Shown: positions 11,795 to 39,395, counted from the stretch's first letter. The stretch is 40,793 nt of DNA from Eubacteriales bacterium (GCA_045631025.1 JAZQTY010000203.1:1-40793), one strand, 5' to 3'. The notes: generated by a model from the letters alone, not told the origin. Translations and numbers: made by a program.

Positions 11795-11843
11795 ACTTTT
11801 GTATGCTGATCGCATCTTGTAAAACCGCAAAGGAGAATGCAAA

Positions 11844-13938: not shown

Positions 13939-13952
13939 AAATCAATTCCTCC

Positions 13953-17975: not shown

Positions 17976-17992
17976 AACTTTTTCTCCTTATG

Positions 17993-19336: not shown

Positions 19337-19414
19337 AAAGCCTCCCGTGCGCATGGGGGTAAAAACGCATCAAATCGCGGTTATATCCCTATGGATATAC
19401 TCTTCTGTATATAT

Positions 19415-19443
19415 ATTCTATCACAGCTCCACCCCAAATTCAA
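19415..19443 (-). promoter_or_regulatory. Putative sigma-A promoter for the GH39-like/giant operon (TTGAAT-N17-TAGAAT, TG-extended)
   Basis: The minus strand reads tttgTTGAAT, a 17-nt spacer, then TGATAGAAT. Confidence 0.4.
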
Positions 19444-19537
19444 CAAACAAACGTCATAGAAACACAACAAAAGGTCATTTTGAACGCACAAATGTAATGT
19501 TATTTTTTGTAAATATTGACTATTTTTTCGTTTACTA

Positions 19538-19566
19538 TTGACAAACTACACATAAAGTTATATAAT
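19538..19566 (+). promoter_or_regulatory. Consensus sigma-A promoter for AraC 19640..20635
   Basis: CTATTGACAAA, a 17-nt spacer, then TATAAT. Confidence 0.55.
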
Positions 19567-19639
19567 GCACTTAAAAATATACGCGCAAAACCACTCCAAG
19601 TCGTCAAAAACCGGAAACACAAAAATAGGAGGTATAAAA

Positions 19640-20846: not shown

Positions 20847-21746
20847 TTAATATCCCAAAAGTGGCTGATCAAAATCCAGCAATATCATATTGATAATATT
20901 CACGTCGTACAGTTGCTCTTTTATACAGTATCCTACTATAATATCAAACTTATTGCTGTTGGAAAGCAAATATCCAAGAGTTCTTAAAAGATGGTTTGTC
21001 TCGTTGATATCCAATTTGAGTGCAATGGCAAAAGCTATTGCCGTTGACTTACTTGGGCGATAATCTTGGTTGCATTTTATTTTTGAAAATATTTTTCTGT
21101 CAACGTTAGCCTGTTTATAGCATTCAACGTCAGTAATACCCTTTTTGTCTATGTAATAAAGCAGTGTATCTGAAAACCCTTTATCCATATTTTTCAAAGC
21201 TTCAATTATAGTATCGCTTTTAATTTGTGGCTGTCCTATATACGGAGCAGCTGCGAAGTCTTTTTTTGGAGGGTCCGATACCTCTCGAGGTGTATTTGAA
21301 GCACTATAAATGCAGCGGCTATATCTTCTATCAATATATCTTCTTATGTTTTCCGAAATATCTTCTGTTGTCTTGCACTTTATAAATTTATGAATCGAAT
21401 TGTATTCATCACTGTTTTCAAAATCGTACTCATAAAGTCCTAAAATACGGTACTTATTTCCGTACTCGTTTTCCTCAAACAAAACAATAATTCGGTATGC
21501 TTTTTCATCACGAAAAAAATCGTAATAAGGCGGTCTTTTGTCTTTGTTGATGTATTCCTCGCTAACGGCATCCTCTGTAATCACTATTTCCCAACCGTTG
21601 TTTTTCTTCAAATCCGAGTTTATAAACCATAACCAAAAGTCGTCAGATAAGCTATATCTGCTTTTTGTAAAGGTCTTGAAATTCGTCTTGAAGGCTTTGT
21701 TTAAGAATTCTGCATGATTTTTTAGATTTACACTATCAATTGCCAT
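20847..21746 (-). CDS. Islet gene 3: unknown N-terminal domain fused to a C-terminal XRE-like HTH module
   Basis: The C-terminal ~110 aa (FSDTLLYYIDKKGITDVECYKQANVDRKIFSKIKCNQDYRPSKSTAIAFAIALKLDINETNHLLRTLGYLLSNSNKFDIIVGYCI) follow a small HTH-regulator pattern common in Firmicutes. Confidence 0.7.
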   Translation of the reverse strand: MAIDSVNLKNHAEFLNKAFKTNFKTFTKSRYSLSDDFWLWFINSDLKKNNGWEIVITEDAVSEEYINKDKRPPYYDFFRDEKAYRIIVLFEENEYGNKYRILGLYEYDFENSDEYNSIHKFIKCKTTEDISENIRRYIDRRYSRCIYSASNTPREVSDPPKKDFAAAPYIGQPQIKSDTIIEALKNMDKGFSDTLLYYIDKKGITDVECYKQANVDRKIFSKIKCNQDYRPSKSTAIAFAIALKLDINETNHLLRTLGYLLSNSNKFDIIVGYCIKEQLYDVNIINMILLDFDQPLLGY

Positions 21747-21774
21747 TTGCTTTCCTCTGACTACAATTTATTTA

Positions 21775-22509
21775 TCAATAATTTGAATATTCCATAGAAA
21801 ATTGCTTGTATATTTTCACTTTTCGAACTTTATTGTTTATTTCTTTCTCCACGATCTCTTGCGGACGGTATATGCCATAAAAGGCATACCCCTCTTTAGT
21901 TTTAATAAATGTTACTCTATCAGACCAATCGTTATGAATGGACCGTGTTTCATTACCAAGCCAAATTTCTTCTATGACATTCCCCTTTACGAAATTAAAC
22001 CAGTGGTAATTTTCATTAAATTTTTCAAAACGGTCATTGTGAGGTATGAACCATACGCTGTATCCCTCCGGGGTACAATTTTTGGCATACATGAGCGTAT
22101 TCATACCAAAATATCCCTTTTTAGAAATTTCCCAATCAAAAAAATTACAAAACTGAACGTATATATCCCTGCTATTTTTCCCATAAGCGGCACCGAACAA
22201 AATCCGTCTTTTTATTTTTTCCGGTTTTTCCCATATTCTGATTGCTTTGCATGAACGCTGATTAATTATATCTATTATTTCAGATTGAATCTTTTTATCA
22301 ACCGCTTCAAGGTGAAATCTGAATTGATCGGGGAAATAAAAATACTTTTCCTCTCCGGTGTCATAAAATTTTACTTTTATGTAGTAATGATTAAATCCCC
22401 CCTCAAATTTGGTCGTATATCCGCAGGTCTTTCCTTTTCTGTCTTTGTCAACGGTTACATCGAATTCTTTATTAAGAAATTCGTTTAATCTTTCATACTT
22501 GGCGAGCAT
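21775..22509 (-). CDS. Islet gene 2: hypothetical protein
   Basis: GGAGGA RBS; starts 18 nt after the gene 1 stop. No family recognised. The C-terminal half loosely resembles the N-terminal domain of gene 3. Confidence 0.65.
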   Translation of the reverse strand: MLAKYERLNEFLNKEFDVTVDKDRKGKTCGYTTKFEGGFNHYYIKVKFYDTGEEKYFYFPDQFRFHLEAVDKKIQSEIIDIINQRSCKAIRIWEKPEKIKRRILFGAAYGKNSRDIYVQFCNFFDWEISKKGYFGMNTLMYAKNCTPEGYSVWFIPHNDRFEKFNENYHWFNFVKGNVIEEIWLGNETRSIHNDWSDRVTFIKTKEGYAFYGIYRPQEIVEKEINNKVRKVKIYKQFSMEYSNY

Positions 22510-22527
22510 TTTCTTCCTCCACTCGTT

Positions 22528-23565
22528 TTAATTGCTGATTTTTACTATATTGTATCCTAATGATTCTGCTCTTTTTATAAACCCATGAATATTCCCTTGA
22601 CCCCATTGCGTACAAACCCAAATAGGCGTATCCAACAAGTATATTGGTGAACCCGAATAGTATCTTTTTTCATAATCTTCCCGACGACTTCTTGCCTCGT
22701 CAGGTTTAGCAACAACACCGCATGACCCTTGCAATCTGTCATAAAAAACAGCCTTTAATTCTCCATATTTGATAGTAGGATTATCTCGAACGTATGATTT
22801 AACTACAGCCTCAACCAATCTTGCCTTGCCGTATATCATTCCCTCGAAACAATATTTCGAATAATCCATGCCCTTCCCTTTTGTAGGCTTATCTACAATT
22901 GGAGGATTAACAATTATAGTTGTTTTAGGCTTTACCTCTATTGAAACATCCTGCAGTGCCGTGTCGATTTCCTTTTCAGAATAAGTACCTTCAAGATAAA
23001 GCTTTATCAATTCTAAAATGGTTTCCGTTGTAAGCTCATCTTTAATCTTTTGAATGTTATTGGAGAAATTATTTTTCGAATCTATAAATTCTTCTATCCG
23101 CTCTGCCGAAAAATTTCCCTTTCGAAGTAGCTCAATGAGCTTTATTCCCTCAGGATTGTTTTCAACAAAGGGTATCTCCCGCCTTTTGATTGTATCATTC
23201 TGGTAGTTATATACGCAAACATATATTTTTTGGCATACCAATATACCGACAGAAATACGCAATTGCCTTAAATAGCTTATCAATTGCTTTTGCATTTCTT
23301 GAGAAAAAGGCATATTATATTGCTTTAATTCAACATCAAACAGATCTTGCCCATTCGTATTTATAATAATATCGGGAATTCCTCTTTCACTTGTGCCAAA
23401 ATTAACTGTTCTCTGCGAATCAACTTCTTTAAGCATTCGACTATACCCGAATATTTCTAAATCTAAAAAATAATCTTCCCATTCCCGTTGTATATTGCTT
23501 TCCCTTAAATTATATAATTCTCGATATCTTGATACTATATAATTCCAATTTTCTGCGTATCCCAT
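22528..23565 (-). CDS. Islet gene 1: PD-(D/E)xK nuclease-fold protein (HsdR-N-like) with an unknown C-terminal domain
   Basis: I place the start at ATG 23565 (MGYAENW) behind AAGGAGA. Core motif GIPDIIINTNGQDLFDVELKQ (PD ... ExK), then QLISYLRQL...GILV, as in type I R-subunit N-terminal-like nucleases. Confidence 0.65.
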   Translation of the reverse strand: MGYAENWNYIVSRYRELYNLRESNIQREWEDYFLDLEIFGYSRMLKEVDSQRTVNFGTSERGIPDIIINTNGQDLFDVELKQYNMPFSQEMQKQLISYLRQLRISVGILVCQKIYVCVYNYQNDTIKRREIPFVENNPEGIKLIELLRKGNFSAERIEEFIDSKNNFSNNIQKIKDELTTETILELIKLYLEGTYSEKEIDTALQDVSIEVKPKTTIIVNPPIVDKPTKGKGMDYSKYCFEGMIYGKARLVEAVVKSYVRDNPTIKYGELKAVFYDRLQGSCGVVAKPDEARSRREDYEKRYYSGSPIYLLDTPIWVCTQWGQGNIHGFIKRAESLGYNIVKISN

Positions 23566-23771
23566 TTTAAAATTCTCCTTATTGTGTTTTGAGTATTCAT
23601 ATATAATATACGCAAAAAATCCCAAAAATACTTTTTATTTTCTAAAATTTTACATGAATTTTTTCACGACTTTATTTTACTATATTTTTTGACTTTTTTG
23701 GTCGTTTTAAAAGCGACATATTGCAATATTTTTTGTCTTTCAGGTTGCTCATGTTTCTTACGTGGCTTCCC

Positions 23772-26149: not shown

Positions 26150-27466
26150 TTAGTATATTACGATCTCCGCAATTACCGGCATATGGTCGGAAAGATATCT
26201 TCCGTTTACCTTGCTCTCCTCGTTAAGAGTAGTAAAATATTCGGTCTCGATTCTGTCGCTCGTTACGAAGATATGGTCGAAAATGTAATTTTGACGTTTA
26301 GTTCCTTGCGTACCGTTGATCGTTCCGCCCACGTCTCCCTTCTTTTTCGTAACCGTTGCAGTTCTGTCGAAGCGCTCAAGATTTTCAATGGATCTCAAGG
26401 TTTTACTCGTGGGCACGGAGTTAAAGTCACCAACGAGAATGACGGGCAACCCCTCACACTTTTTACCCTCAAGGAACTTATTAAGATACTGTACCTGCTT
26501 GTATCTTGCGTTATCGTCGTTATTCTCTCCCTGCGCATTTCTGTACGTTACGTGCACGTTAACGAACACAAACTGATTATGCGTAGCAAGGCTTTCAAGA
26601 ACTACGTAAGAAAAACCTCTGTAAGAATTCGACTCCTCGATCTTGGACTCAACGAACGGAGTATTCGTCAAATACTGGAAGCCGGAGGAAACCTTCGTAT
26701 ATTTATCGGCGTTCCAGAATATCATATTAGATACTCCGCTTCCCTTCAATACGATGCCCTCGTAGCAATCGTAATTAGGCATTGCCGCGAGTATTTTTTC
26801 CTTATGAGGACTCATAGTCTCCTGCGTTCCGAAAACGTCGGGAGCCTGCTCCTTTATAAAGTTCGCAAGCGCCGTAATATCTCGCGGAAGCTGTTGGGCA
26901 TCGTCGTAATACATATCGTAAAGAACGTTATACGACATAACCTTAAGGCTATCCTTGGCAAAAGCAACCTTCTCGTTTTTGTCAACCGTAATTACGGTAT
27001 CCGCCCCGTCGGTAGTAACCTTATCAAAGAAAGAGTCTATTACGTTGCAAAGTCCAACGTTATCTTTAGCCAATATATATACGTTCTTTCCGTCGTATCC
27101 GATCATTCCCTCGTCGCAGGTGTCAAAGAACGTAGAAATACTTGCGTCGCTACCCTTTTTGTCTATAAATATCTGATAGCCGTCGCCTGCAAGCTTTTCG
27201 GACTCAAGCTCTATTTCGTATATCTCATTCAATTTAGAATTAAAATACTCAACCGCATGTTCACTCGTTTTTCCACTGTAAACTATGGTATAATCCGTCA
27301 TTTTAACGCCGTTAAGCCTAAAAGTCGGCTCACCGGGCTGCGTCGTCTGCGCTTCGGTATCGCTCGTTTGCACGTCGCCGCCTTGAATTCTGTCGCAAGC
27401 AAACAGCGCCGGAACCAGCATAAGAAGCGCCAATAACAAGCTTAAAAATCTAATTTTACGTTTCAT
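26150..27466 (-). CDS. Lipoprotein with an N-terminal alpha/beta domain and a C-terminal EEP domain (paralog of 9654..10931)
   Basis: Lipobox ALFAC. EEP motifs MSYNVL, GTQET, NVHVT, VGDFNS, DHIFV, LSDHMPV. Confidence 0.85.
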   Translation of the reverse strand: MKRKIRFLSLLLALLMLVPALFACDRIQGGDVQTSDTEAQTTQPGEPTFRLNGVKMTDYTIVYSGKTSEHAVEYFNSKLNEIYEIELESEKLAGDGYQIFIDKKGSDASISTFFDTCDEGMIGYDGKNVYILAKDNVGLCNVIDSFFDKVTTDGADTVITVDKNEKVAFAKDSLKVMSYNVLYDMYYDDAQQLPRDITALANFIKEQAPDVFGTQETMSPHKEKILAAMPNYDCYEGIVLKGSGVSNMIFWNADKYTKVSSGFQYLTNTPFVESKIEESNSYRGFSYVVLESLATHNQFVFVNVHVTYRNAQGENNDDNARYKQVQYLNKFLEGKKCEGLPVILVGDFNSVPTSKTLRSIENLERFDRTATVTKKKGDVGGTINGTQGTKRQNYIFDHIFVTSDRIETEYFTTLNEESKVNGRYLSDHMPVIAEIVIY

Positions 27467-27544
27467 TTAATTTTTCCTCTTTTTGATTTAAAGATAATAT
27501 GATAATCGGTCGCCGCTTTCCGTGCGGCCGATGAATTTTCAATT

Positions 27545-28630
27545 TTATTCCTCGTAGCCAAATCTCTTAACTATGAAATTTTCAGCTCCCAATACCGGAA
27601 ACTCCTTCTTGCCCCAAGGCTTATGCCAATAGAGCGAGCCGCGAAGTCGGTTTTCCGTGTCGCGAACACCGTACTGAAGCTGGGAAATAGCAGGCTTGAA
27701 GCCCACTCCGCATTCAAAATTCAAGGTGCCTACGAATACGTTGCACTTCCCCTTCTTGTTTCCGTAAAGCTCAACGTCGGTAGTTGACATAATTACGGTA
27801 TTGTGCTGGGCTACTATATGATTTATGGTTGATACGTGAGAGCAATCGTGGAAGGTCATTCCCTCTTCGCAGTTGTGGATATAAAGATAATCCGCAACGA
27901 CGTGCTCACCCATAACCAAGCCGTACTTAAAGCCTTGTACGGCTACGTTACGCAAAACGTTATTGTCGTTTTGGTCTTGCGAGGTAATAAGTCCCGCAAC
28001 GTGACAAGGGTTTTTCTGAAGCTCCTTACCAAGGAACGTGTCTCCGATCTCTTCATTCAGACAAAACTGCGAATCGCACACGTTAATTCTTGATACGTTA
28101 CCAAGATTAACCGCTCCCTGCGTCGGATACATTTTTTCCTTATCAAGCGCGACGGCAAATTCAAGATTGCGTATAGAAAAGGATCTTACGCTGAATTTTC
28201 CCGCGCACGAATCTCCTATCGGAGCGGACAGTATAGACCACGGACGAGCCGTGGGATCGTGCTCCTCGGGGGGATTCCAGTCAGAGAATATTCTCGTATT
28301 GACACTGTTTCTGCCAAAGCTAGTCGGAGAGTAATTTCCGTCGTCAGGTCTGACCTGATAGGGATAGAGCATCATGCAGGGCATTTCGCCCTCAAGTATG
28401 ATGTTGTGTCTACCGCGAGGTATGTATAGTTGGGAGCGCAACGGCTGACCGTCAAGCTCCTCAATTCCCGGAGATGCTATCCTATATCCACCTTTTGTAA
28501 ACGGAAAAAACAGCTTGCCGCCTCCACGCTCCGCAAGAAAATTTATTCCCTTTTGAATAGCGGCAGTATCGTCGGTAACACCGTCACCAACCGCTCCGAA
28601 ATCTAACACAGAATAACCGAATATAGACAT
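27545..28630 (-). CDS. Right-handed beta-helix protein (pectate-lyase-superfamily / GH28-55-like); no signal peptide
   Basis: N-terminus VLDFGAVGDGVTDDTAAIQKGINFLAERGGGKLFFP is the hallmark of the Pectate_lyase_3-type beta-helix. Confidence 0.7.
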   Translation of the reverse strand: MSIFGYSVLDFGAVGDGVTDDTAAIQKGINFLAERGGGKLFFPFTKGGYRIASPGIEELDGQPLRSQLYIPRGRHNIILEGEMPCMMLYPYQVRPDDGNYSPTSFGRNSVNTRIFSDWNPPEEHDPTARPWSILSAPIGDSCAGKFSVRSFSIRNLEFAVALDKEKMYPTQGAVNLGNVSRINVCDSQFCLNEEIGDTFLGKELQKNPCHVAGLITSQDQNDNNVLRNVAVQGFKYGLVMGEHVVADYLYIHNCEEGMTFHDCSHVSTINHIVAQHNTVIMSTTDVELYGNKKGKCNVFVGTLNFECGVGFKPAISQLQYGVRDTENRLRGSLYWHKPWGKKEFPVLGAENFIVKRFGYEE

Positions 28631-28730
28631 AGCTCCTCCATTTTAGCCATTTTTTAGGCCGTTAATAAACTTTGCCAAACGAATTTTAAACGATAATCGC
28701 CGCAAGCGCTTGGCATTTTTAACGACGATA

Positions 28731-28763
28731 CTGCACAAGCCCATCATTGACGGACTTGTGCAG
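28731..28763 (-). terminator. Hairpin related to 9584..9616, downstream of the SBP-like gene
   Basis: ctgcacaag...cttgtgcag arms. The flanking tatcgtcgtta resembles taatgtcgtta after the first copy. Confidence 0.35.
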
Positions 28764-28776
28764 TTCTATAAATAAA

Positions 28777-30219
28777 TCAGTCTAACGCTTCAATAGAATT
28801 AAACAGATTTTCAATCTTGTTTTCGGTAGACGTCTTAACGCCGCCGTACAATCCGGAGATATCTTTAGTGGTGTTAATGCTCTCAAGCAAAATCTTTGTC
28901 TTAAGATTTATCTGGCTTCCGTATACAAGACCGAAATCGAACACGAGGCTATCAACAACGACGTCTACCATTTCAGCGCAAACCTCGTCGTAGCTGCTCT
29001 TAACCTTACAAACGGTGTTGTAGTAGGTAGTGAGCGTAGTGTCCGAGGACTTCCACGACAGAACCTCTACCATGAACGCGGAGAAATCAGCGTCTGCCGC
29101 GCAGATCGGAATTCCGTAGGTTGCACCGTAGGTGTTGTCGTTAGTCGTGTAATAGCGTCCCTGCTCTACGTCGTACATAGGATAAGGCAAGGGAGTATAA
29201 GAGAACTGTGCGTTCTCTCCCAAGCTTTCAATGGACGACAGCGAGGAAGCGTAGAAGAACGCTCTGCCGTCAAGGAAGGTATCGTGCGGGTCGTCGTAAG
29301 TACCGAACTTATTTCCGCAGAAGGAAAGGTCCTCGCTAAAGAGCTTGCGGAGTTCTGCGATGCTGTTCATCGAATGCTCGTTAGCAACCTCAACGCTCCA
29401 ATTATCCTCTGCATCAAAAGCAACGATCTTATTGTTAAGTCCGCTCCAGAAGGAAACGGGGAATTCCTTACCTGCCGCAACGAGTCCCCAGCTATCGTCA
29501 AGATCCATCTTGCCGTCTCCGCCGGGATCGCTCTTGGTATAAATGAGCATCTGCTCTATCGTCCACTGCTTGTCGCGAACCATCTGAACGATATCGGCGT
29601 GCTGGTTTTCAGCTCCGAGATCACGGTTGTAGTACAAGGTGTTGATTCGAGCCTTGTCAACGAGCGAGAAGTCGCTTACCATGTGGAACAGTCTGCCTCC
29701 GACTCTCATGGTGTCAAGAGTTTCGGAGTTGTACCACTCGTTTGTGAAGTCTATATACGACACAGCGTCAAGGTCGTTCATATATCCTGCCAAGATTGCA
29801 GACGACATATAGTTACGCGCCAAGAACGCCAAATCGTAGTCGTAATCTTCAGCGAGTATAACGTTTTTAAGAGCCTCAAGACCGTCGGCATCCTCCGTGT
29901 AGTTATCATCAACCGTAATAGTTACGTTGTAGTACTCCTCTATCCAGTTGTTTCTGTGATAAACCGTATCTGCCATTATATCTCCGCCGAGCTCACCTAC
30001 AAGCTCAAAATTGGGCTCGTGGGCGTTGTTCAAAGCGAGTATATTAAAGTTTCTTCCGCCCCAGTCGTAGTGAGGAACGGGATCGGTAGCTGCCTCTTCG
30101 ACGATTCCCTGGGTTTCAGTTTCCTCCGGTACGTCAACGTCGCAGGCAACGAAGGTCATAAGCAAAAGCAACAATGCAAGAAGCAAGCTGCCTGCTTTTA
30201 AAAATTTTGATTTAGTCAT
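28777..30219 (-). CDS. Extracellular solute-binding-protein-like lipoprotein (paralog of 4934..6409)
   Basis: Lipobox TFVAC. The start ATGACTAA overlaps the stop of 30212..31999 by 8 nt, with RBS AAGGAGA inside the upstream gene. Confidence 0.55.
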   Translation of the reverse strand: MTKSKFLKAGSLLLALLLLLMTFVACDVDVPEETETQGIVEEAATDPVPHYDWGGRNFNILALNNAHEPNFELVGELGGDIMADTVYHRNNWIEEYYNVTITVDDNYTEDADGLEALKNVILAEDYDYDLAFLARNYMSSAILAGYMNDLDAVSYIDFTNEWYNSETLDTMRVGGRLFHMVSDFSLVDKARINTLYYNRDLGAENQHADIVQMVRDKQWTIEQMLIYTKSDPGGDGKMDLDDSWGLVAAGKEFPVSFWSGLNNKIVAFDAEDNWSVEVANEHSMNSIAELRKLFSEDLSFCGNKFGTYDDPHDTFLDGRAFFYASSLSSIESLGENAQFSYTPLPYPMYDVEQGRYYTTNDNTYGATYGIPICAADADFSAFMVEVLSWKSSDTTLTTYYNTVCKVKSSYDEVCAEMVDVVVDSLVFDFGLVYGSQINLKTKILLESINTTKDISGLYGGVKTSTENKIENLFNSIEALD

Positions 30220-31999
30220 CTTTTCTTCTCCTTGAGGTTAAACCAACAACGCCTATTGCAGAAGCCATAACAACAGCCGCACCGCAGAAGCCGATAGAGC
30301 TGCCGCAGCCGCCCTTGGCTGCCTCGGTCTCGGGAGCAGGAGCAGCCTCGGTGTCCTTGTTATCCTCAACCAATACGGGAGGCTTGTTTTCGGGTTTGCT
30401 GGATTCGCCCTTTTCCTCTTCTTCCTCTCCCTCTTCCTCTTCGGGAATGTCCATAGGAGGAGCTGCTTCATTTTCAGCAGCTATGAGAGCAACACCCTTG
30501 TATACGTTAAGGTCACTTACGGTTACTTCGGTCACGAAATACGAGTAGAAGTAAATTCCAAGATAATCTCTCATGAATACGGAGGGATCCTCAACAGGGC
30601 TGTACTGCTCGATAAGAAGCCATCTGCCCTCGGAGTCCTTTACGTACAAAGCGATCGTGGTATTATCGCCGTTGATCTCCATAGCGTACTCCTGAACGGA
30701 AGGATAGTTCTCCGTTCCGCCGTCGTATCCGGCAACGTAGTCGGTGGTAAGTTCAGAGTAATCGATATAAGAGTATCCGCTTACCGCATTACCGTTTCTT
30801 TGAGGTCTGCCCCTGTTAGCGTAGAAGTAACCGCCGTAGGTTCCGTCGATAAGCAAGCCTATCGGAACGTTGCTCGTACGGCTCACGGTAAACTTAACGG
30901 TGTAGGAATATCCTTCGCCGAGAGGAAGTCCTTCGATGTCTGCGCCCCAAGCGGCGTTCTTCTTTTCGGTAACGCCTTCCTCGCCCGTAGGTCTTTCGGT
31001 AACCTTAATAGTTACCTTGCCTGCGTCCTCGGAATCAACGTTTGCGGTGATGTTATCGCAAGGCCACTCCCAACCTGCGTTTGCAGCAGCGGCTGCGTTG
31101 CTGGGCTTGAAGCAGTCGTCAGCTCCGCTGAAGTCAGCAGAGTAAAGGAGACCGCCCTCTTCAACTCCGTCCCACAAAGCCGTGGAAATAACGGGCTCTT
31201 CGCCTTCACCCTCGCCTTCGCCTTCGCCTTCACCCTCGCCACCTGCGGGAGGAGTAACGGCAGCATTTTCATTAGCTACAACCGATATGCCCTTGTATAC
31301 GCATACGTCGCTAACGGTTACTTCAGTTACGTAATACGAATAGAAATATAATCCAAGACGGTCTCTGAAAAATGCGGGCGGATCCTCCTTGGGAGTACCA
31401 TCGTCTATCTTGCTCCATTTGCCGTCCTCGCCCTTTACGTACAAAGCAAACGTCGTATCGTCACCGTTTATCTCAATAACGTACTCCTGCTCCAACTTTT
31501 CGGTATAATTACCCCAGCTATGTCCGGTCAATGCGCTACCGTTTCTTTGAATTCGAGCCTTGTGTGCGTAGAAATAACCACCGTGAGTGCCGTCAAACAG
31601 CAATCCGATAGGGTTTTCGTTATCTGCGCAGGAAACCTTGAACTTAATCGTATAGGAATATCCCTCGCCAAGAGGAAGATTGTCTACATCCGCGCCCCAA
31701 GCAGTATTGTTCTGCGGTGTAACCTTAATAGTCACTTTGCCGGAGTCCTCAGGATCAACCGTTGCGGTTATATTATCGCAAGCCCAGTTGTAACCTGCGT
31801 TTGCAGCAGCAGTTTCGTTGCTGGGCTTGTAGCAGTCATCAGCGCCGCTAAAGTCAGCCTCGTAGAGAAGCGCTCCGTCCGCAGCGGCAGCGTAAATATC
31901 GTTCGTAGCCGCATCTGCGAATGTCGCGATTGCCATGAAGGGTACGGTCATCATCAAGACCAATACCAATGCCAAAATTTTTTTCATCGTGTTTTTCAT
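30212..31999 (-). CDS. Secreted protein: signal peptide, 2 x jelly-roll module (type C) joined by a (GE)n linker, acidic linker, C-terminal KGGCGSS-TM-RRRKDD tail
   Basis: Two repeats (GALLYEADFSGADDCYKPSN... / GGLLYSADFSGADDCFKPSN... through ...VTEVTVSD(V/L)xVYKG). GGEGEGEGEGEGEGEE is encoded at 31196..31243. Confidence 0.8.
   Translation of the reverse strand: MKNTMKKILALVLVLMMTVPFMAIATFADAATNDIYAAAADGALLYEADFSGADDCYKPSNETAAANAGYNWACDNITATVDPEDSGKVTIKVTPQNNTAWGADVDNLPLGEGYSYTIKFKVSCADNENPIGLLFDGTHGGYFYAHKARIQRNGSALTGHSWGNYTEKLEQEYVIEINGDDTTFALYVKGEDGKWSKIDDGTPKEDPPAFFRDRLGLYFYSYYVTEVTVSDVCVYKGISVVANENAAVTPPAGGEGEGEGEGEGEGEEPVISTALWDGVEEGGLLYSADFSGADDCFKPSNAAAAANAGWEWPCDNITANVDSEDAGKVTIKVTERPTGEEGVTEKKNAAWGADIEGLPLGEGYSYTVKFTVSRTSNVPIGLLIDGTYGGYFYANRGRPQRNGNAVSGYSYIDYSELTTDYVAGYDGGTENYPSVQEYAMEINGDNTTIALYVKDSEGRWLLIEQYSPVEDPSVFMRDYLGIYFYSYFVTEVTVSDLNVYKGVALIAAENEAAPPMDIPEEEEGEEEEEKGESSKPENKPPVLVEDNKDTEAAPAPETEAAKGGCGSSIGFCGAAVVMASAIGVVGLTSRRRKDD
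30494..31888 (-). repeat. Two tandem type-C modules with a (GE)n spacer
   Basis: Protein-level repeat of about 200-230 aa seen directly in the translation. Confidence 0.7.
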
Positions 32000-32044
32000 A
32001 AAAAACCTCCTTATATTTTTTTTGAAAAAAATTTTTAATGTTTT

Positions 32045-32173
32045 TTAGAATGGGTCCTCCGCCCAGTTATCAAGATTGTCGTTTCCGAATATAACGGAAA
32101 ATACCATGATGTCCTTCGTATCGATATCTACTACTCTCATTTCGGGAGAAACGTATTCCTTTTTCATTTTCAT
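32045..32173 (-). CDS. Conserved micro-ORF (42 aa) coupled to the giant EEP gene: MKMKKEYVSPEMRVVDIDTKDIMVFSVIFGNDNLDNWAEDPF
   Basis: AAGGAGGGG RBS; starts 18 nt after the giant gene stop. 32083-32107 is identical to 13848-13872 (25 nt). Confidence 0.65.
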   Translation of the reverse strand: MKMKKEYVSPEMRVVDIDTKDIMVFSVIFGNDNLDNWAEDPF

Positions 32174-32191
32174 AATACAACCCCTCCTTAA

Positions 32192-35100
32192 TTAATATGC
32201 GAACGTTGCGTATACGGGAATGTGGTCAGAGGGATATCTCATAACATCCTTGACTACTTCCTCGCCCGTCTCTTCATCGGTCTCGGTTACAGTACCGGGG
32301 TCGTTCATAACGTTAACTACGGTGTAGGTGAGAGCCTCGGTGTTTCTGAAGAGAATGTGGTCAAATACATATTCATCACGTCCAACGTAATTACTTGAGC
32401 TTGCTAGCGTACCGCCGGTGTCACCGGTAATGCAAGCCTCATCTCTTGCGAAGGAGAGTCCGCTCTCGGAGTAGCCGTTAAGAACCGCCTTACCATTGTT
32501 GGAGTTTATGTGAGCGTTCATATCTCCGGTAAGTATCTGCGTAGGATACTGTGCTTCCTGATCCTTCATCCATGCTGCGAGAAGTCTTGACTGATACTCA
32601 CGAAGAACGTGGTCGTCAGCGCACTTCTCGTCGGAGGAGCTTGTGCCGTCACCGTAGTGGAGGTGAGTATTAACGAAGAGAATTACCTCGCCGGTCGTAT
32701 TGTCTTTGAGAACTGCGTAGCTAAAGGTTCTTCCGATGTCCTCGCTAGAGAACCAGCCCTCTGCGTCACCCTGAGAGTCGATGGACATATCAGTTCCCTC
32801 ATAGCCCTCAATAGTGTAGGTCTTGGCAAGATTCTTGAAGGAATCCCAACCGGAAGTCACAAGAGTGAACTTCTCGGTCTTGTAGTAGATGTCGTTAAAC
32901 GCCCAGCCGTTACCAAACTTGTTGGACCACTTGTACTCTCTGTCTCCTGCAATATTTGCGTATCCTTTGTTCTCAAGAACAGCGAGATAATCGTTCCAGT
33001 CCTCGGTATCCTCCTGGAGTCCGACAACATCAGGGTTAACGTCAAGAATAATCTGAACTGCGTTTGCGGGGTTTCTTCCCTCCCAAGCGTCATCTCTCTT
33101 GTACTCAAGGTTGTAGGTGAGCACGGAAATGGTGGAGTTCTTGTTTGTTCCCTCGCCGTCAGGCTGATTGAAGAAGCTCGTGAGCGTCTTCATCTCGTCT
33201 GCATCGTAGGGGCTGTATACGGTAACGCCTGCAATGGTTATCGCGTTTACGTAATCTCCGCCCATCTCGGTCTTGGTGTCACCATATGCCTTTCTTGCTA
33301 CCTCTGCGACGGATCTGGAGTTATACTCCACGTCAAAATCAGAGTACTTGTAAATTTCGCCGTTAATTTCAATAAACGCTCTTGCAGAGAACTCGCGCGT
33401 GTAGTTAGCAGCCTTTACGTTAACGAGCGCGCAGTTAATAGTGTAGAACAGGCCGTCATCGTCTACGTGTACCGTAGTCGCATCAATCTTTACGTACTTA
33501 ACGCCCGTGATAGCATCGCATGCATCAAGCGCTTCCATAGTAAAGTCGACGCCGTTCTCGGTGAGGTAATCGGTAGGAGTGATTATCATACCGAGCTTTA
33601 CATTCTCCTCGCCGTATTCCTTCTTCAAGGAATCAAGCGTGTACTTTCTGAACTCACTCTCGAAGCGAATACCCGTGGGACTGCTGAGACGAACAGCCGC
33701 GCCCGTTTCGCTCTGAATCTCACCTGCCATAAGTCCCTTGTATATCTTCATGTCAGAAATCTCGGTCCAGGAATTTGCGTCCGAAGTACCGCTGAGCTTT
33801 CTTGTGTAAATTCTGGGGTTAAGGTTATTGCCAAGCTTTGCGCCGTCATAGGTAAGCGTTCTTACTGCGTTGAACGCGCCGTTAGCATCCGCAACGTAAA
33901 GAGTCATAGTGTTATTTTCGGGATCGACCTCAACTGCGAACGTATGCTTCTCGGACTTTTCTACGTCGGTCGAGTAGTTCCACTTATCCTCTCCCGCGTC
34001 AGACTTTCCGACCTTTTCGGTGTTCCACTTATAACAGCGGTTACAGCCAAATCCGTCGATAACGATCGAATGGTCGCCGTCGGCCATGACGCCAAGTCCG
34101 TACTTGTTGTATGCGGTGTTTCCGAATTCGAGGTCAAATATGATGGTGTACTTATACTGCTTGTCGCCGTATACGTAGGTAGTCTCTTCATCAGAACCTT
34201 CCTCCGGCTCTATCACTTCAACAACGTCTCTGAGAGGATAAGAGGTATCGATTCCACCCCAAATAGCGCGGTTATACGACTTACCGTCAATAAGGGTAAG
34301 TCTTGCCATGCTTCCGTCCTCGGAAATAACGGCATCCGCACCGTAGTTGCTATCGCTATAGAAGCCCTGACGCCAATTGAAGCGGTCAGCGAAGTTGACA
34401 GTATAAAGAAGATCGCCGTCCTTTGCGTTATCATACTCGGCAACTCTGTCTTCCTCGGTAGATACAGGCAATCCCTTGTATATCAACAAGTTAGAAAGTT
34501 TAGCCCAAGAATTGGCATTAACTGCGCCTCTTATGACAATCCTGCAGCTCAAATAATCGCCAAAGTCTACATCACCGTACGTAGCTACCTCATTGAACGA
34601 GCCGTCAAGGTCCACAATATAGAGGGACATTGTTTTTGCTTCGGGGTCAACCTCAACAGCAAAGGTCTGTGTACCGGACTTAGGACTCCACAAGCCATCA
34701 TAGTCCCACTGCTCGACGGGATAGTTTGCTCCAACCTCCGTATCCGCGGACATGTCGTTATTCCAGTCCCAGAGTCTGGAGTTTCCGTTTCCGTCGACGG
34801 TAATAGCATAGTTCCCGTCAACCTGAATACCTACCAACGTTCTACCGCCGGTTTCGTTACCGAAATCTACGTCGAACATAACGGTATATTTTCTGTAATT
34901 GCCGTTTGCGTCTGCGGTAAGAGGATATGTGTATTCTCCCCTGTATCCTGCCCACATAGCGCGCTTCGAGCTATAGTTTGCAACGGAAAGCGTTGCGGAG
35001 CTTCCGTCCTTGGAAGCAGTGATATACGCACCTCTGTTGGAGTCAGATGCAAAATTGCCTGCCCAGCCAAGAGAGTTGAAGTTGACGGTGTTAAGAAGAT

Positions 35101-36589
35101 CGCCAACCTTCGCACTATCATACTCAGCAGCTCTGTCTATTGCTTCTGCCTTAATATCGCTGACAGCGCCCTTGTATATCAGAACATCTGCAATTTCATT
35201 CCAGTAATTGCCGTCTACCGTTCCGGACGTATATCTTGTATAGATTCTGCAGTCTAATTTTTTATTGAACTTTACGCCTGTAAACGTTTCTACCTTTACG
35301 TATTCGCCTTCAGTATTCTTTACGTAAAGAGTCATCGTTCCGTTTGCAGTATCAACCTCGACTGCAAACGAATGCAAATCACCATATTTGTCGGCGGCGA
35401 ATCCGCCCGCGGTCAACCAGTTTACTGTTCCCGTGGTGGCTTTAGTGTTCCACTTATACAGATAGGTGTCACCGGATCCGGTAACAAGAATATCCGTGTC
35501 ATTATCTGTACAATCTACCATGATGCCTACTCCGGTTTTTGTATTTCCGAATCTTGCATCATACGTGATTGTGTATTTTTCGCCGCCCTCGGTGGAGAAG
35601 CTATCTGCAGCAGAAAATCCGCCCCAAATTGAGCGCTTATTATTATAGTCGGCAAGTATAGCCTTCGAATGTATCAATTGCTTCAGCGATCTTCCGTTTG
35701 CGGAAGTCATAACATAGGCATGCCAGTTGTTGTGATCTGCAAAATCGTTGCGCCAGGACATGTCGTTAAAGTCGACAACCTTAAGAAGGTCGCCGTTGCC
35801 GGCAGCTGCATATATCTCTGCGGGAGTCTTTTCGACATTGAGCGTATCTACCGTTCCGTTTACGGTAACCTCACCGATATCGATGCATCCGTCCTTACTG
35901 GGAGCTGTTACGGCAACTGCAACGTACTTTGCCGAAACTCCGTTACCCTCACCATCACGAAGATCTATCTTGTGACCAACTCTGAGGTAGCCGTCAACAG
36001 TTTTAGACGCGTATGCGGCATCGCCCTCAACAGGGAACTTCGCTCCGGGATCAGTTCCATCTCCGCACATTCCGCTGAACTCCTTCAAAAAAGTCCAGGT
36101 CTCGCCGTCAGTGCTCACAAGGATTTCATATCCATCGTTAATACCCCAGCTTGATGTGGGATCGCTCCAGGCTACTGCCTTATCTGCAGCGTATCCGTTA
36201 CCCGTAAGCCAAATAGTTACGTCGTCAAGAGTGCTCAAGCCGTTGAGCTCGAATACTGCATATCCGTAATACAGACTCATTGTTGAGCCCACCATAAGAG
36301 GCGTATAGGGGGAAGATATGGACTCGGACTCGTAGTACGGACGTTTACTTCTTCCATCCGCGGACGTATCGTAGGGATCTCCGTCGATCATTCCTGCAAC
36401 GGAGCCATACGAAGTGTGAAGGTCGTATCCGTCACTTCTCTTCGCAAAGATTTTCGCATGCGTAATGGTTGTAGCTATGGTCTCACTTTCCTCTGCCGCT
36501 ATAGGCAACATCGTAAGAGGAAGCGCCAGCGCTATCATCAGCACTGCGAGAAATAATGACAACGCTTTTTTCAGAGTTCTCTTTTTCAT
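32192..36589 (-). CDS. Giant secreted protein: 1 x discoidin-like module + 3 x jelly-roll module (type A-like) + conserved middle domain + C-terminal EEP domain
   Basis: Signal peptide MKKRTLKKALSLFLAVLMIALALPLT. Middle domain GAAVRLSSPTGIRFESEF...LGMIITPTDYL. EEP motifs LTYNLE, GLQED, NTHLH, TGDMNA, DHILF, YPSDHIPV. Confidence 0.85.
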   Translation of the reverse strand: MKKRTLKKALSLFLAVLMIALALPLTMLPIAAEESETIATTITHAKIFAKRSDGYDLHTSYGSVAGMIDGDPYDTSADGRSKRPYYESESISSPYTPLMVGSTMSLYYGYAVFELNGLSTLDDVTIWLTGNGYAADKAVAWSDPTSSWGINDGYEILVSTDGETWTFLKEFSGMCGDGTDPGAKFPVEGDAAYASKTVDGYLRVGHKIDLRDGEGNGVSAKYVAVAVTAPSKDGCIDIGEVTVNGTVDTLNVEKTPAEIYAAAGNGDLLKVVDFNDMSWRNDFADHNNWHAYVMTSANGRSLKQLIHSKAILADYNNKRSIWGGFSAADSFSTEGGEKYTITYDARFGNTKTGVGIMVDCTDNDTDILVTGSGDTYLYKWNTKATTGTVNWLTAGGFAADKYGDLHSFAVEVDTANGTMTLYVKNTEGEYVKVETFTGVKFNKKLDCRIYTRYTSGTVDGNYWNEIADVLIYKGAVSDIKAEAIDRAAEYDSAKVGDLLNTVNFNSLGWAGNFASDSNRGAYITASKDGSSATLSVANYSSKRAMWAGYRGEYTYPLTADANGNYRKYTVMFDVDFGNETGGRTLVGIQVDGNYAITVDGNGNSRLWDWNNDMSADTEVGANYPVEQWDYDGLWSPKSGTQTFAVEVDPEAKTMSLYIVDLDGSFNEVATYGDVDFGDYLSCRIVIRGAVNANSWAKLSNLLIYKGLPVSTEEDRVAEYDNAKDGDLLYTVNFADRFNWRQGFYSDSNYGADAVISEDGSMARLTLIDGKSYNRAIWGGIDTSYPLRDVVEVIEPEEGSDEETTYVYGDKQYKYTIIFDLEFGNTAYNKYGLGVMADGDHSIVIDGFGCNRCYKWNTEKVGKSDAGEDKWNYSTDVEKSEKHTFAVEVDPENNTMTLYVADANGAFNAVRTLTYDGAKLGNNLNPRIYTRKLSGTSDANSWTEISDMKIYKGLMAGEIQSETGAAVRLSSPTGIRFESEFRKYTLDSLKKEYGEENVKLGMIITPTDYLTENGVDFTMEALDACDAITGVKYVKIDATTVHVDDDGLFYTINCALVNVKAANYTREFSARAFIEINGEIYKYSDFDVEYNSRSVAEVARKAYGDTKTEMGGDYVNAITIAGVTVYSPYDADEMKTLTSFFNQPDGEGTNKNSTISVLTYNLEYKRDDAWEGRNPANAVQIILDVNPDVVGLQEDTEDWNDYLAVLENKGYANIAGDREYKWSNKFGNGWAFNDIYYKTEKFTLVTSGWDSFKNLAKTYTIEGYEGTDMSIDSQGDAEGWFSSEDIGRTFSYAVLKDNTTGEVILFVNTHLHYGDGTSSSDEKCADDHVLREYQSRLLAAWMKDQEAQYPTQILTGDMNAHINSNNGKAVLNGYSESGLSFARDEACITGDTGGTLASSSNYVGRDEYVFDHILFRNTEALTYTVVNVMNDPGTVTETDEETGEEVVKDVMRYPSDHIPVYATFAY
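33731..35818 (-). repeat. Three tandem ~220-240-aa modules (GDLLxxV(D/N)F ... FAVEVD...MTLY(V/I) ... (L/K)IYKG)
   Basis: Counted from the translation: approximately aa 258-474, 488-705 and 715-953. Confidence 0.7.
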
Positions 36590-36857
36590 AACTTTTCTCC
36601 TGTAGTTTTTTTATCTTAATAGCTTACTTTTTGCTATTTAAGTCAAGGTAAGAAGCAGGGCGAAGCTCCCAAATACTTACTTGTATACACACATTTTTTC
36701 AGTCCAAGGGCTTCGACGCCATTTTCACAATAACATTTTACCACAAATCTCGTTTCCTTTCAATAAACTAAAGTTAAATATAAGCAACAAAAAGTTATAT
36801 TCGATATAGAATTTGTTTCCTTCTATTTGTTTATTTTCACCATTTTGCACTATGCTA

Positions 36858-36886
36858 TTGACAAATAGCAGATGGGGTTGTATAAT
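36858..36886 (+). promoter_or_regulatory. Consensus sigma-A promoter for AraC 36953..37906
   Basis: CTATTGACAAA, a 17-nt spacer, then TATAAT. Confidence 0.55.
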
Positions 36887-36952
36887 TAACTGTGACATTA
36901 TAGTACAAATTACCAAAAAATCACATTTTCAAAAAAGCGGAGACGATGCAAA

Positions 36953-37906
36953 ATGAAGTTTACTCATTGCGATTATAAGTATAAAAGCTCATCGGTAATC
37001 CCATCTACGGGCTCTATACAGTCCCGAAAAATGCAAGTTGCAAGCAGCCGCGCCGACTTAAAGCGCGATACCGAATACTACGCGTCCTGGATATGCATTT
37101 ACGCAACGGACAAGGATATAACCGAGTTTACCCTCGGAATTGACTATTCTTATCCCTCTCAAACGATAAGGGACAGATGCGAGGGTAGACTTTTTCTTAA
37201 TTTTATAGTAAAGGGCAAAGGAACGATTAACGGCGAGCCATTCTCCGCAGGTCAATTCTTTTATACCCGCCCCCTTCAAATGCATACTATACAGTCCGAT
37301 CCCGACGATCCTTACGTCTCCGTTTGGATATATGTTCAGGGTGAGTACGCCAATTACATAGAAAATGAATTGGTCAAAAAAAGCAGCAGCGGCATCATGA
37401 CCCTGAACAATTATGCCGACGTATTGGAGCTTACTAAAACCTTTCTTTTCACCGTCAACCTCGCAGAAACCTCAACCTCTTATCTCAAGCACCTCATAGG
37501 TATTTATCTCTCGTATATATCTCCAAGCAACGACCTGAATTATCCCGAGATATTCGCCACCCAAAAAATAACACGACTCGTTTACGTCGCAAAAACCTAT
37601 ATCAGCAAAAACCTCAAGACCGTTACCGTCGCTGATCTCGCGGCTAATCAGCGCTATAACGTAAAATATTTTTCGAGGCTCTTCGCCTCTGCCACGGGCA
37701 TGAAGCCCGCCGAGTATATCACCGATTGCCGAATAGAGTGGGCTAAAAACTCGCTTGAGCACTCCGATCTCTCCGTCTCGGAAATATCCGAGGCGATCGG
37801 CTACGAGCACAGAAACGGATTTGCTACCGCATTTAAAAAGAAGTACGGCTGCTCCCCATCCGAGTACAGAAAGAAAATGAGAGCCCTTAACAAGGAAACC
37901 GAATAA
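36953..37906 (+). CDS. AraC/XylS-family transcriptional regulator
   Basis: C-terminal HTH (...CRIEWAKNSLEHSDLSVSEISEAIGYEHRNGFATAFKKKYGCSPSEYRKK). Third member of the paralog group, divergent from the giant gene at 36589. Confidence 0.85.
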   Translation: MKFTHCDYKYKSSSVIPSTGSIQSRKMQVASSRADLKRDTEYYASWICIYATDKDITEFTLGIDYSYPSQTIRDRCEGRLFLNFIVKGKGTINGEPFSAGQFFYTRPLQMHTIQSDPDDPYVSVWIYVQGEYANYIENELVKKSSSGIMTLNNYADVLELTKTFLFTVNLAETSTSYLKHLIGIYLSYISPSNDLNYPEIFATQKITRLVYVAKTYISKNLKTVTVADLAANQRYNVKYFSRLFASATGMKPAEYITDCRIEWAKNSLEHSDLSVSEISEAIGYEHRNGFATAFKKKYGCSPSEYRKKMRALNKETE

Positions 37907-38020
37907 TTCCCTCTCAAAAAACGCGACGTTAGTTTTTTAAAAGCACTTGAAAAAGCACGTGCTTTGTGGTATGATATTGTTATAATATCGTTATTATATT
38001 CTCTCGAAAGGAGCTAAAAA

Positions 38021-38830
38021 ATGAGTAACCAACCTACAAACGCAAAAATTGATTCCTTGAAGATAATGTCCTACAACGTCTTGCTCGACTTTTACAAGGA
38101 GGGGCGCGATCCAAGCTTTATCGTAGAGCTCCCCGCTAGCGTAAGAGAGCATGCGCCCGATATCCTCGGCACGCAGGAGACTATTACCGATATGCACGAC
38201 CAATGCTTGGGGCTCTTGGAGGAATACACCTGCTTTAAGGGCGAGGCGTACACGGAAAATAACATGCGAGGCAATTATATTTACTGGCGTGCAGACAAGT
38301 TTAAGGCGCTTGAAGCGGGACACCGCTACATGAGCGACACGCCGACGGTACGCTCAAAGTATGAAAAGTCAAGAGAGTACCGAGGCTTTAACTACCTTTA
38401 CTTGGAAAGCTGTGAAACGGGTAACCGTTTTCTGTTCCTCAACCTTCACGCAGACTACCGCGCTGACGAGGACACCCGAGTTCTTCAGCTTAAGACCGTA
38501 AACGCCTTTTTGAATGAAGAAAGATGGCAGGGGCTCCCGGCAATTATCGTGGGAGATTTCAACTCTACCGCGCATCAGGCAAGTATTTCCACCTTCCTAT
38601 CTGACAATTCTCGCCTTGCCATGACATCGGAGGTCGCAGAGGTAGTCGGAGACACCGGCGCTACCCTCGTAAGCGGCTTTGCCAACAAGCTTCCCTACGT
38701 GTTCGATTATATTTTCGTTACCAAGGATAAGATCAACACAAAGTATTATTCCGATATCGACAATATAAAGAACGGAAAATACCCCTCTGATCATCTCCCG
38801 GTGGTTGCTGAAATAGAATTATTTAACTGA
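38021..38830 (+). CDS. Leaderless (cytoplasmic) stand-alone EEP-domain protein
   Basis: No signal peptide. Motifs MSYNVL, GTQET, NLHAD, VGDFNS, DYIFV, YPSDHLPV. Closest by eye to the EEP domains of the two lipoproteins. Confidence 0.8.
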   Translation: MSNQPTNAKIDSLKIMSYNVLLDFYKEGRDPSFIVELPASVREHAPDILGTQETITDMHDQCLGLLEEYTCFKGEAYTENNMRGNYIYWRADKFKALEAGHRYMSDTPTVRSKYEKSREYRGFNYLYLESCETGNRFLFLNLHADYRADEDTRVLQLKTVNAFLNEERWQGLPAIIVGDFNSTAHQASISTFLSDNSRLAMTSEVAEVVGDTGATLVSGFANKLPYVFDYIFVTKDKINTKYYSDIDNIKNGKYPSDHLPVVAEIELFN

Positions 38831-38915: not shown

Positions 38916-39395
38916 TTACCTTTGTGTCTTGCGAGAATTGTTTTTCAATCCGGAAATGAACTTCATTACGACGGAAACCACCACCGTCCCGCAAACTATT
39001 CCCAACGCTATATAGCAAGTACTCTTAAATGAAGCCGCGAAATTCCCATAATCTCGCAACAACAAATATCGCACGCTGTAATATAGGGCGCTTCCCGGAA
39101 CGATAGGCACGACACCGGGGAGAGTAAATATTACGGTCGGCGTTTTTAACGCTCTTGCCAATATTTCCGCCATCACGGCTACGAACGTCGTGGCGACCGT
39201 TGCCGCCCAAAATTCCGACAAATTAAAAAATATGGCTACCATATATATGGCGTAATTAAAAAGTCCGCAAATGGATATGTATACCAAGTATTTCCCCTTG
39301 AGCTTAAAAATTATTGCAAAGCCAAGAGTTCCGAAAAATGCAGCTATCAGCGCAGGCAACAAGTCAAGAAGATATAACGCAAGCTCCTTCATCAT
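38916..39395 (-). CDS. Threonine/serine exporter family, small subunit (ThrE_2 / YjjB-like)
   Basis: 159-aa polytopic membrane protein. Its start overlaps the stop of the upstream ThrE-like gene by 4 nt (ATGA), the usual two-gene arrangement. Confidence 0.7.
   Translation of the reverse strand: MMKELALYLLDLLPALIAAFFGTLGFAIIFKLKGKYLVYISICGLFNYAIYMVAIFFNLSEFWAATVATTFVAVMAEILARALKTPTVIFTLPGVVPIVPGSALYYSVRYLLLRDYGNFAASFKSTCYIALGIVCGTVVVSVVMKFISGLKNNSRKTQR

Follow-up and report, generated by a model that had tools for sequence, protein, structure and literature searches.

Three secreted proteins, here called T1, T2 and T3, are encoded in a 40,793-nucleotide stretch of DNA from a Eubacteriales bacterium (GCA_045631025.1, JAZQTY010000203.1:1-40793; this whole stretch is referred to as the window). 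They end in a common tail, which is very likely a new cysteine-containing surface-anchoring signal that lies outside any curated model. The tail, given the working name GCGS-CTERM, is about 33 residues long and forms a portable domain located strictly at the C-terminus. It is found in uncultured, spore-forming bacteria of the gut (Clostridia), on many unrelated signal-peptide-bearing proteins and in several copies per genome. It consists, in this order, of a linker rich in Thr, Glu, Ala and Pro, the signature K-[KGS]-G-C-G-S, an uncharged span of 21-24 residues rich in Ala, Val and Gly, and the charged end [KR]KK[ED]D. The explanation favoured as a whole, which is probable if only by a little, is that the tail represents an uncatalogued Cys-type tripartite C-terminal sorting/anchoring signal, in which the Cys would be lipidated and the helix removed by a protease encoded at an unlinked locus.

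The open reading frames (ORFs) of the three proteins and the parts of their tails are located as follows (EEP, Exo_endo_phos):

30212..31999, minus strand: T1 ORF, 595 amino acid residues (aa); N-terminal signal peptide, two ConA/LamG-like β-sandwich modules, acidic/TEAP linker, GCGS tail at the C-terminus
30212..30352, minus strand: C-terminal end of T1, which translates to TEAAPAPETEAAKGGCGSSIGFCGAAVVMASAIGVVGLTSRRRKDD and then a stop
30299..30316, minus strand: T1 signature K562-G-G-C565-G-S567, Cys codon at 30305..30307
30233..30298, minus strand: T1 hydrophobic span SIGFCGAAVVMASAIGVVGLTS, residues 568-589
30215..30232, minus strand: T1 charged end RRRKDD, read directly from the sequence
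12737..13717, minus strand: T2 ORF, 326 aa; N-terminal signal peptide, one F5/8-type-C-like module (also in the giant EEP protein 13953..17975), linker, GCGS tail
12737..12868, minus strand: C-terminal end of T2, which translates to TEAAPAPETEAAKGGCGGSIGIAGIAMISLVSGAALVIKRKKD and then a stop
12740..12832, minus strand: T2 tail, signature K296-GGCGG, codon of Cys299 at 12821..12823
12755..12814, minus strand: T2 hydrophobic span
12740..12754, minus strand: T2 charged end KRKKD
3631..4689, plus strand: T3 ORF, 352 aa; N-terminal signal peptide, one module also present in the EEP protein 6444..9350, TEAQ linker, GCGS tail
4531..4710, plus strand: C-terminal end of T3, the translation of which ends ...TEAQTEAQTEAEAQKGCGSVIAGVGAALVSACAAGFVISNRKKEED and two stops; the final residues are ...TEAEAQKGCGSVIAGVGAALVSACAAGFVISNRKKEED, then a stop
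4591..4686, plus strand: T3 tail, signature K321-GCGS, codon of Cys323 at 4597..4599
4606..4668, plus strand: T3 hydrophobic span
4669..4686, plus strand: T3 charged end RKKEED

A sequence-only reading of this DNA had proposed that the three proteins share a C-terminal layout, and the translations reproduce the ends that it quoted. The range that it gave for T3, 4591..4686, does hold the 32 tail residues from the Lys onward; the TEAQ linker quoted with them lies outside it. The three tails follow one pattern, in which K-(G)-G-C-G-[SG] leads into some 20 uncharged residues and then into three to four Lys or Arg and one to three acidic residues, and each of them stops directly at the stop codon. 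The mean Kyte-Doolittle hydropathy of the T1 span is 2.19 (best 19-mer), and the values for the three window tails lie between 2.2 and 2.4. A six-frame scan of the window revealed no further ORF of at least 100 aa in which a G-C-G motif is combined with a C-terminal hydrophobic span and a basic cluster.

Directly before the motif, 35 nucleotides that code for the TEAAPAPETEAA linker are identical in T1 (30318..30352) and T2 (12834..12868). The tails of T1 and T2 are not fully independent copies, and that of T3 has clearly diverged. Beyond the tail and linker, T2 has no relationship to the other two proteins, and the identity between T1 and T3 is only 24-28%. The T2 and T3 modules recur without the tail in the giant EEP proteins listed above.

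The recurrence of the tail motif extends far beyond chance. A tail profile of 37 positions, built from 11 tails and run against 1.84 billion representative proteins, matches 133 proteins at E<=1e-3, and these form 133 clusters at <=50% identity. In all 133 the match is located at the extreme C-terminus, ending within about 5 residues of the end of the protein. The tails of T2 and T3 score 39.4 and 47.0 bits, respectively, with the tail hidden Markov model (HMM). A tail-only profile compared with a database of 5.8e9 proteins gave nine word-sharing candidates, none at E<=10, the query being too short for that method. Locus searches with narrow alignments found seven genome loci ([EA][EAR][KE][KGS]GCGSSI) and 15 metagenome loci (GCGSV[IV]Gx[SGA]A); as each alignment sampled a sub-motif only, these counts are not estimates of prevalence.

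The Gly-Cys pair is the fixed point of the family. When positions are counted from the Cys, G(-1) and C(0) are present in 133/133 matches, I/V/L(+4) in 129, G(+1) in 127, G/A(+5) in 112, S(+2) in 109 and K(-3) in 83, so that the Cys at the membrane boundary, called invariant in the sequence-only reading on the strength of three proteins, is invariant in the entire family. The uncharged distance from the Cys to the first Lys or Arg is 21-24 residues in 131/133. A cluster [KR]{3-4}, mostly Lys, terminates every tail and is followed by one to three acidic residues (consensus KKKED), and a cytoplasmic domain after this charged end is never seen. A rare departure from G-C-G is found in P0147, a database protein 97% identical to T2, in which G(+1) is replaced by Val (KGGCVGSIG).

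The profile itself favours G-C, and the size of this bias was measured. Replacement of the Cys by Ser lowers the score by 8.7 bits on average; even so, of 131 distinct tails 71 would remain above the threshold after this change (28 with GC changed to AA). As no profile hit lacks the Cys, its invariance goes beyond mere ascertainment. In 29 distinct tail DNAs the codons for G, C, G and S vary synonymously, and the Ser is encoded by both TCN and AGC. The constraint therefore acts on the peptide and not on a DNA repeat; a repeated DNA element as the origin of the motif is ruled out by this codon diversity.

The relatives of T1 and T2, which were collected with their ectodomains and not with their tails, are consistent with this constraint: the orthologues and tail-bearing homologues retain G-C while the helix diverges. 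Full-length T1 is matched by 12 database proteins, 11 of which share its ectodomain as full-length homologues (40-54% identity). Ten of these 11, together with P0012, end in G-C-[GA]-x-x-[IL], a varying helix and [KR]3-4[DE]2-3, and P0009 is without the tail; G564 and C565 of T1 are invariant in the orthologue alignment. For T2, the G-C tail is kept in 22 of 26 database matches, the other four (P0156, P0158, P0159 and P0160) ending differently or being fragments or fusions. T3 has a near-identical database protein, P0022.

The cargo to which the tail is attached is diverse. Among the 82 members of at least 200 aa, compared after removal of the last 70 residues (BLASTP, E<1e-5 over at least 50 aa), similarity is limited to 247 of 3321 pairs, and the remaining 3074 (93%) show none. 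The Pfam domains found in the cargo include FIVAR, F5/8-type-C, GDSL lipase, Flg_new, RicinB, CBM9, Big_2, LamG, β-helix and others, and most tail-bearing members have no Pfam domain. By a heuristic, not a dedicated predictor, 61 of these 82 members have signal-peptide-like N-termini, and many of the others look 5'-truncated. Across all 133 the number is 72 (59 of the signal-peptidase-I-like type and 13 with a lipobox-like match); the other 61 are proteins that are shorter than 60 aa or fail the heuristic, and many of these too look 5'-truncated. The Thr/Glu/Ala/Pro linker that precedes the tail is 30-60 residues long and could span the wall.

Several tails can occur together: three in the 40.8-kb window, three in consecutive genes on a 9-kb contig (L013), two in adjacent genes of one metagenome-assembled genome (MAG; L009), and tails on two contigs in each of the MAGs SIG709 and RGIG9444. 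The named hosts, all of them uncultured Clostridia, comprise one MAG each of the Oscillospiraceae, Lachnospiraceae and Eubacteriales, and Clostridia MAGs from the roe-deer colon and the yak caecum; a spoIIIA operon adjoins one tail-bearing member. The two members that are named in NCBI nr are both called 'hypothetical protein' and assigned to 'Clostridia bacterium'.

Eight complete mini-proteins of 65-108 aa (P0036, P0084, P0088, P0102, P0118, P0120, P0145 and P0146) carry the tail with hardly any cargo: each consists only of a lipoprotein signal peptide with its lipobox Cys, a linker rich in Pro, Thr, Glu and Ala, and the GCGS tail. If both ends were processed, these would become short peptides that are lipid-anchored at both termini.

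The linker and tail also move between proteins. In P0100 and P0161 the signal peptide is T1-like but the tail T2-like, and P0100 and P0161-P0167 have only the linker and tail in common with T2, at 70-87% identity. These hybrids and the 35 nucleotides shared by T1 and T2 indicate that a linker-plus-tail cassette has been shuffled by recombination or gene conversion. The same observations could be taken to mean that the tail has no specific function at all, being a recombining linker-plus-helix cassette of one narrow lineage in which the motif persists by recent common descent. This is very improbable, for the family comprises 133 clusters at <=50% identity in which the helices diverge freely while G-C-G-S stays, the tail DNAs differ at synonymous sites including those of the motif, and the hits belong to several lineages (Oscillospiraceae, Lachnospiraceae and unclassified Clostridia/Eubacteriales).

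The curated models do not account for the tail. The scan that the sequence-only reading had suggested was run with NCBIfam release 20.0 (June 2026) and Pfam on the T1-T3 proteins at full length and on their isolated tails. No match reaches a curated cut-off; LPXTG-type models alone give matches, which are weak and fall on the helix-plus-basic part. The weak matches of 131 family tails are distributed over Rumino_NPXTG (54), LPXTG_anchor (53), Synerg-CTERM (13), TIGR03382 (10) and TIGR03901 (3), and among the 25 most-matched models listed the best coverage by one model is <=41% of the tails. As judged from these scans, no single NCBIfam or Pfam model describes the family, plausibly because the tail is restricted to MAGs. 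Full-text literature searches, likewise, found no paper that describes a Cys-type CTERM signal in Firmicutes.

A few tails do lie above the low cut-offs of other models (P0129, P0094, P0023/P0024 and P0108). The LPXTG_anchor cut-off of 15.9 bits is passed by two tails, with 17.0 bits (model positions 11-34) and 16.6 bits (positions 14-33; no single stretch of this tail passes alone). The TIGR03382 (GC_trans_RRR) cut-off of 15.85 bits is passed by one Arg-rich tail (17.8 bits), and that of Synerg-CTERM, 22.5 bits, is just passed by P0129 (23.7 bits), which has a Pro in its helix. The four above-cut-off tails show a resemblance, and with it a risk of mis-annotation, not membership.

The matches to LPXTG-type models raise the question of whether K-x-G-C-G-S could stand in place of LPXTG, be recognised by a divergent Clostridia sortase and become linked covalently to peptidoglycan. 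The tail does resemble the LPXTG/NPXTG signals (TIGR01167, NF033846) in its Gram-positive hosts, in the low-complexity linker that could span the wall, and in the helix followed by a KRK-acidic end, and it is this likeness that the 54 and 53 weak matches and the two above-cut-off scores reflect. The inspected alignments, however, are confined to the helix and basic end (model positions of about 5-34, and of about 8-34 for TIGR01167) and never reach the pentapeptide. The signature is indeed not LPXTG, as had been noted from the three window tails: an LPXTG-like pentapeptide is present in none of the family tails. There is no Thr-Gly or other sortase-type scissile motif, the invariant Cys standing instead of Thr-Gly, and the spacer that usually separates the motif from the helix is missing. 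Moreover, no sortase gene is seen in the window or in the Pfam neighbour annotation of 14 of 38 related loci, about a third. A sortase-type wall signal is accordingly improbable.

A more general yardstick is provided by Haft's eight bioinformatic criteria for tripartite C-terminal sorting signals, of which seven describe the family in full and the eighth in part. The tripartite layout pointed out in the sequence-only reading is conserved family-wide. The strongly hydrophobic, transmembrane-like middle (criterion 4) corresponds to the 21-24 uncharged residues. The terminal cluster of two to five basic residues, typically Arg (criterion 5), is present, though it is mostly Lys. Most members have an N-terminal signal peptide (criterion 6), and many pairs of members lack similarity outside the signal (criterion 7). 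Criterion 8 concerns homologues without the signal or with another one. The former kind is represented by P0009, P0156, P0158 and P0160 and by the in-window EEP giants, which share modules without the tail; the latter kind did not turn up among the relatives examined.

The closest functional parallel is MYXO-CTERM (TIGR03901/TIGR03382), with its generic GCGC motif. It is cleaved in a Cys-dependent manner by the myxosortase MrtX, an intramembrane protease of the CPBP/Rce1 family that is never encoded beside its substrates and that had not been identified for a decade; prior lipidation of the Cys has been proposed, with Lgt as the leading candidate (10.1101/2023.06.07.544157; PMC11980579). MYXO-CTERM and the GCGS tail have in common the tripartite C-terminal layout, an invariant Gly-Cys at its start (GCGC and GCGS, respectively), an uncharged helix, a short basic end, many unrelated secreted proteins per genome and the absence of an enzyme gene beside the substrates. 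They differ in their hosts, which are Myxococcota in one case and monoderm Clostridia in the other, with no outer membrane or type II secretion system (T2SS) step in the latter, and in the basic cluster, which here consists largely of Lys with acidic residues after it. In the alignments inspected, no tail attains the 20-bit cut-off of TIGR03901.2, the best score being 14.6 bits. At E<=1 TIGR03901 is matched by 3 and TIGR03382 by 10 of 131 tails, and the window tails do not match TIGR03901.2 at E<=10.

Synerg-CTERM (TIGR04564, with the predicted protease MrtS) likewise has a Ser/Gly-rich cluster with a single invariant Cys that abuts the helix. Its Leu-rich helix, however, contains an invariant Pro, whereas the helix of the GCGS tail is rich in Ala, Val and Gly and has 0.4% Pro. 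Synerg-CTERM, moreover, occurs only in Synergistales, which are diderms and have a dedicated T2SS. Its model is matched at E<=1 by 13 of 131 tails and not by the other 118; none of the window tails match it at E<=10. PGF-CTERM with archaeosortase A (ArtA) provides a precedent from monoderm archaea for swapping a C-terminal helix for a lipid anchor. Its signature, PGF, has no Cys and belongs with another enzyme family, and TIGR04126 is weakly matched by 3 of 131 tails. GlyGly-CTERM/rhombosortase was considered because of the GG before the Cys in T1 and T2 and was rejected: G(-2) is present in only 40/133, and TIGR03501 is outside the 25 most-matched models. By analogy, the tail probably has the same mode of action as the Cys-type signals MYXO-, Synerg-, JDVT- and CGP-CTERM, but it departs from them in HMM cut-offs, host lineage, the Arg-rich cluster and the features of the helix. 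What is new is a distinct signature in a new, monoderm lineage; the type of signal is already known.

By combining these comparisons with the topology of the proteins, the fate of a GCGS-tailed protein can be pictured in some detail. After Sec export, the helix would halt transfer, as suggested by the signal peptide and the positive-inside rule. The cargo would then be outside and the helix across the cytoplasmic membrane, with the Cys at the outer interface and KKKED inside. By analogy with myxosortase and other Cys-type CTERM systems, the Cys thiol might next be modified with a lipid. The helix and the charged end might then be cut off by a housekeeping intramembrane protease encoded at an unlinked locus, for which the CPBP/Rce1 family is the most plausible source. 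The lectin-like cargo would remain tethered to the outer leaflet by its C-terminal lipidated Cys, and the linker would carry it through the wall. Cleavage and Cys lipidation are both suggested by likeness to the known systems. The host appears to have lipoprotein machinery of the Lgt/Lsp type, judging from four lipobox proteins in the window. That gut Clostridia possess a dedicated Cys-dependent C-terminal sorting pathway, in which a lipid is placed on the Cys and a CPBP-type or other intramembrane 'sortase' removes the helix, is put forward tentatively, as a possibility somewhat short of probable.

Several points weigh against this picture. The Pfam search of the window ORFs revealed no sortase, CPBP, rhomboid or exosortase-like protein, which agrees with what had been read from the sequence alone. 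The multi-pass proteins of the window are an MFS transporter and a ThrE-family pair (38916..40186), which are exporters and not CPBP proteins. The neighbours in 38 related loci include no recurrent multi-pass membrane or protease family, as judged from a crude transmembrane and CPBP-motif scan of ORFs, all-against-all clustering of neighbours, and Pfam neighbour tables for seven members (14 of the 38 loci). What does recur are solute-binding lipoproteins, AraC regulators, EEP/module proteins and Gfo/Idh/MocA-like oxidoreductases. A missing neighbour enzyme is not counted against a one-to-many system, since myxosortase likewise is never found beside its substrates. Furthermore, the basic cluster, Lys-rich with an acidic end, is like that of Firmicute LPXTG-type signals and unlike that of the Arg-rich Cys-type signals. 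All named hits come from MAGs or metagenomes of uncultured Clostridia, and a part of the similarity between tails is shared descent, because the linker and tail have spread by recombination. Finally, cleavage is not needed to explain retention, because a plain transmembrane helix already anchors a protein in a monoderm.

This last point leads to the main alternative, namely that the helix is a permanent single-pass (type I) anchor, which is never cleaved, and that the juxtamembrane K-x-G-C-G-S has another role: S-acylation without cleavage, a thiol that binds a metal or a partner, an intermolecular disulfide or thioether, or a flexible hinge. Such an anchor is unlikely, though a good deal less so than a wall signal. 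An uncharged stretch of 21-24 residues suffices for a stable helix, and a helix is what AlphaFold2 (AF2) predicts. A monoderm has no need to replace it, and no processing enzyme was found in the window or as a recurrent neighbour in the related loci. The helix carries small residues at regular places (+5, +8, +10, +13 and +16). These could form a helix-helix packing interface and not a recognition surface for a protease, and the eight mini-proteins made of a lipoprotein signal, linker and tail hint that the helix has a role of its own. A retained anchor, however, does not account for a G-C-G-S that is invariant while the cargo is unrelated, and it leaves unexplained the short charged end with no cytoplasmic domain after it. 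The composition of the helix (Ala 30%, Val 19%, Gly 13%, Leu 10%, Ile 9%, Phe 2.5%, Pro 0.4% and no Trp) also argues against it: an Ala/Gly-rich, Phe-poor helix resembles cleavable signal-type segments more than it does the Leu/Phe-rich helices of stable anchors. The overall pattern, in addition, fits Haft's criteria for processed signals.

The cargo of T1 is most likely glycan-binding, as predicted from its structural model. The AF2 model (mean pLDDT, the per-residue confidence score, 69.6) consists of two well-predicted β-sandwiches, a disordered linker (residues 506-571) and a terminal helix (residues 572-594) of low confidence. Foldseek matches it to ConA-like lectin folds, namely BoNT Hc, Bacteroides SGBP-B, laminin LG and legume lectins. 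A glycan-binding T1 fits its neighbours, which are GH39-like, solute-binding-lipoprotein, pectate-lyase-like and AraC genes, and also the operon that is conserved at its homologue P0010.

The last 8 nucleotides of T1, stop codon included, are also the first 8 of the next gene downstream, which codes for a solute-binding lipoprotein (28777..30219; start codon at 30217..30219). The Arg codons AGG AGA AGA of T1 double as the Shine-Dalgarno sequence of that gene (AGGAGA, about 8 nucleotides before the ATG). This second use of the Arg codons may be the reason why T1 ends in RRRKDD and not in the family consensus.

The window contains three paralogous clusters (1032..10931, 12737..20635 and 26150..38830), each with an AraC-type regulator and a lectin-like protein that carries the GCGS tail. 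The clusters also hold some of the following: a GH39-like enzyme, a solute-binding lipoprotein, a pectate-lyase-like protein and EEP proteins. The genes for these surface EEP enzymes number six in the 40.8 kb (6444..9350, 9654..10931, 13953..17975, 26150..27466, 32192..36589 and 38021..38830). Between the glycan-related clusters, at 11147..12356 and 20847..23625, are located a Fic/DOC-family gene, a YcxB-like gene and three further ORFs, for which Pfam gives either nothing or a weak HSDR_N_2-like match. These genes may represent a small inserted or defence-type island.

It is through C-terminal sorting signals that a bacterium determines what its surface displays, and the recognition of every new signal has led to another processing enzyme. 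The GCGS tail marks a large set of unannotated surface proteins in uncultured Clostridia of herbivores and the gut, among them lectin-like glycan binders, lipases and adhesin-repeat proteins. A curated HMM would name the members of this set, prevent their being mis-called as LPXTG, MYXO-CTERM or Synerg-CTERM proteins, and serve as the query for phylogenetic profiling of the cognate enzyme. Should lipidation of the Cys and removal of the helix prove true, Gram-positive bacteria would join the diderms and archaea in the myxosortase paradigm. The tail would then define the first Cys-type CTERM system in monoderm Firmicutes and a second, mirror-image lipoprotein route beside Lgt/Lsp, and it would bear on which transferase lipidates a Cys presented in the inverted topology.

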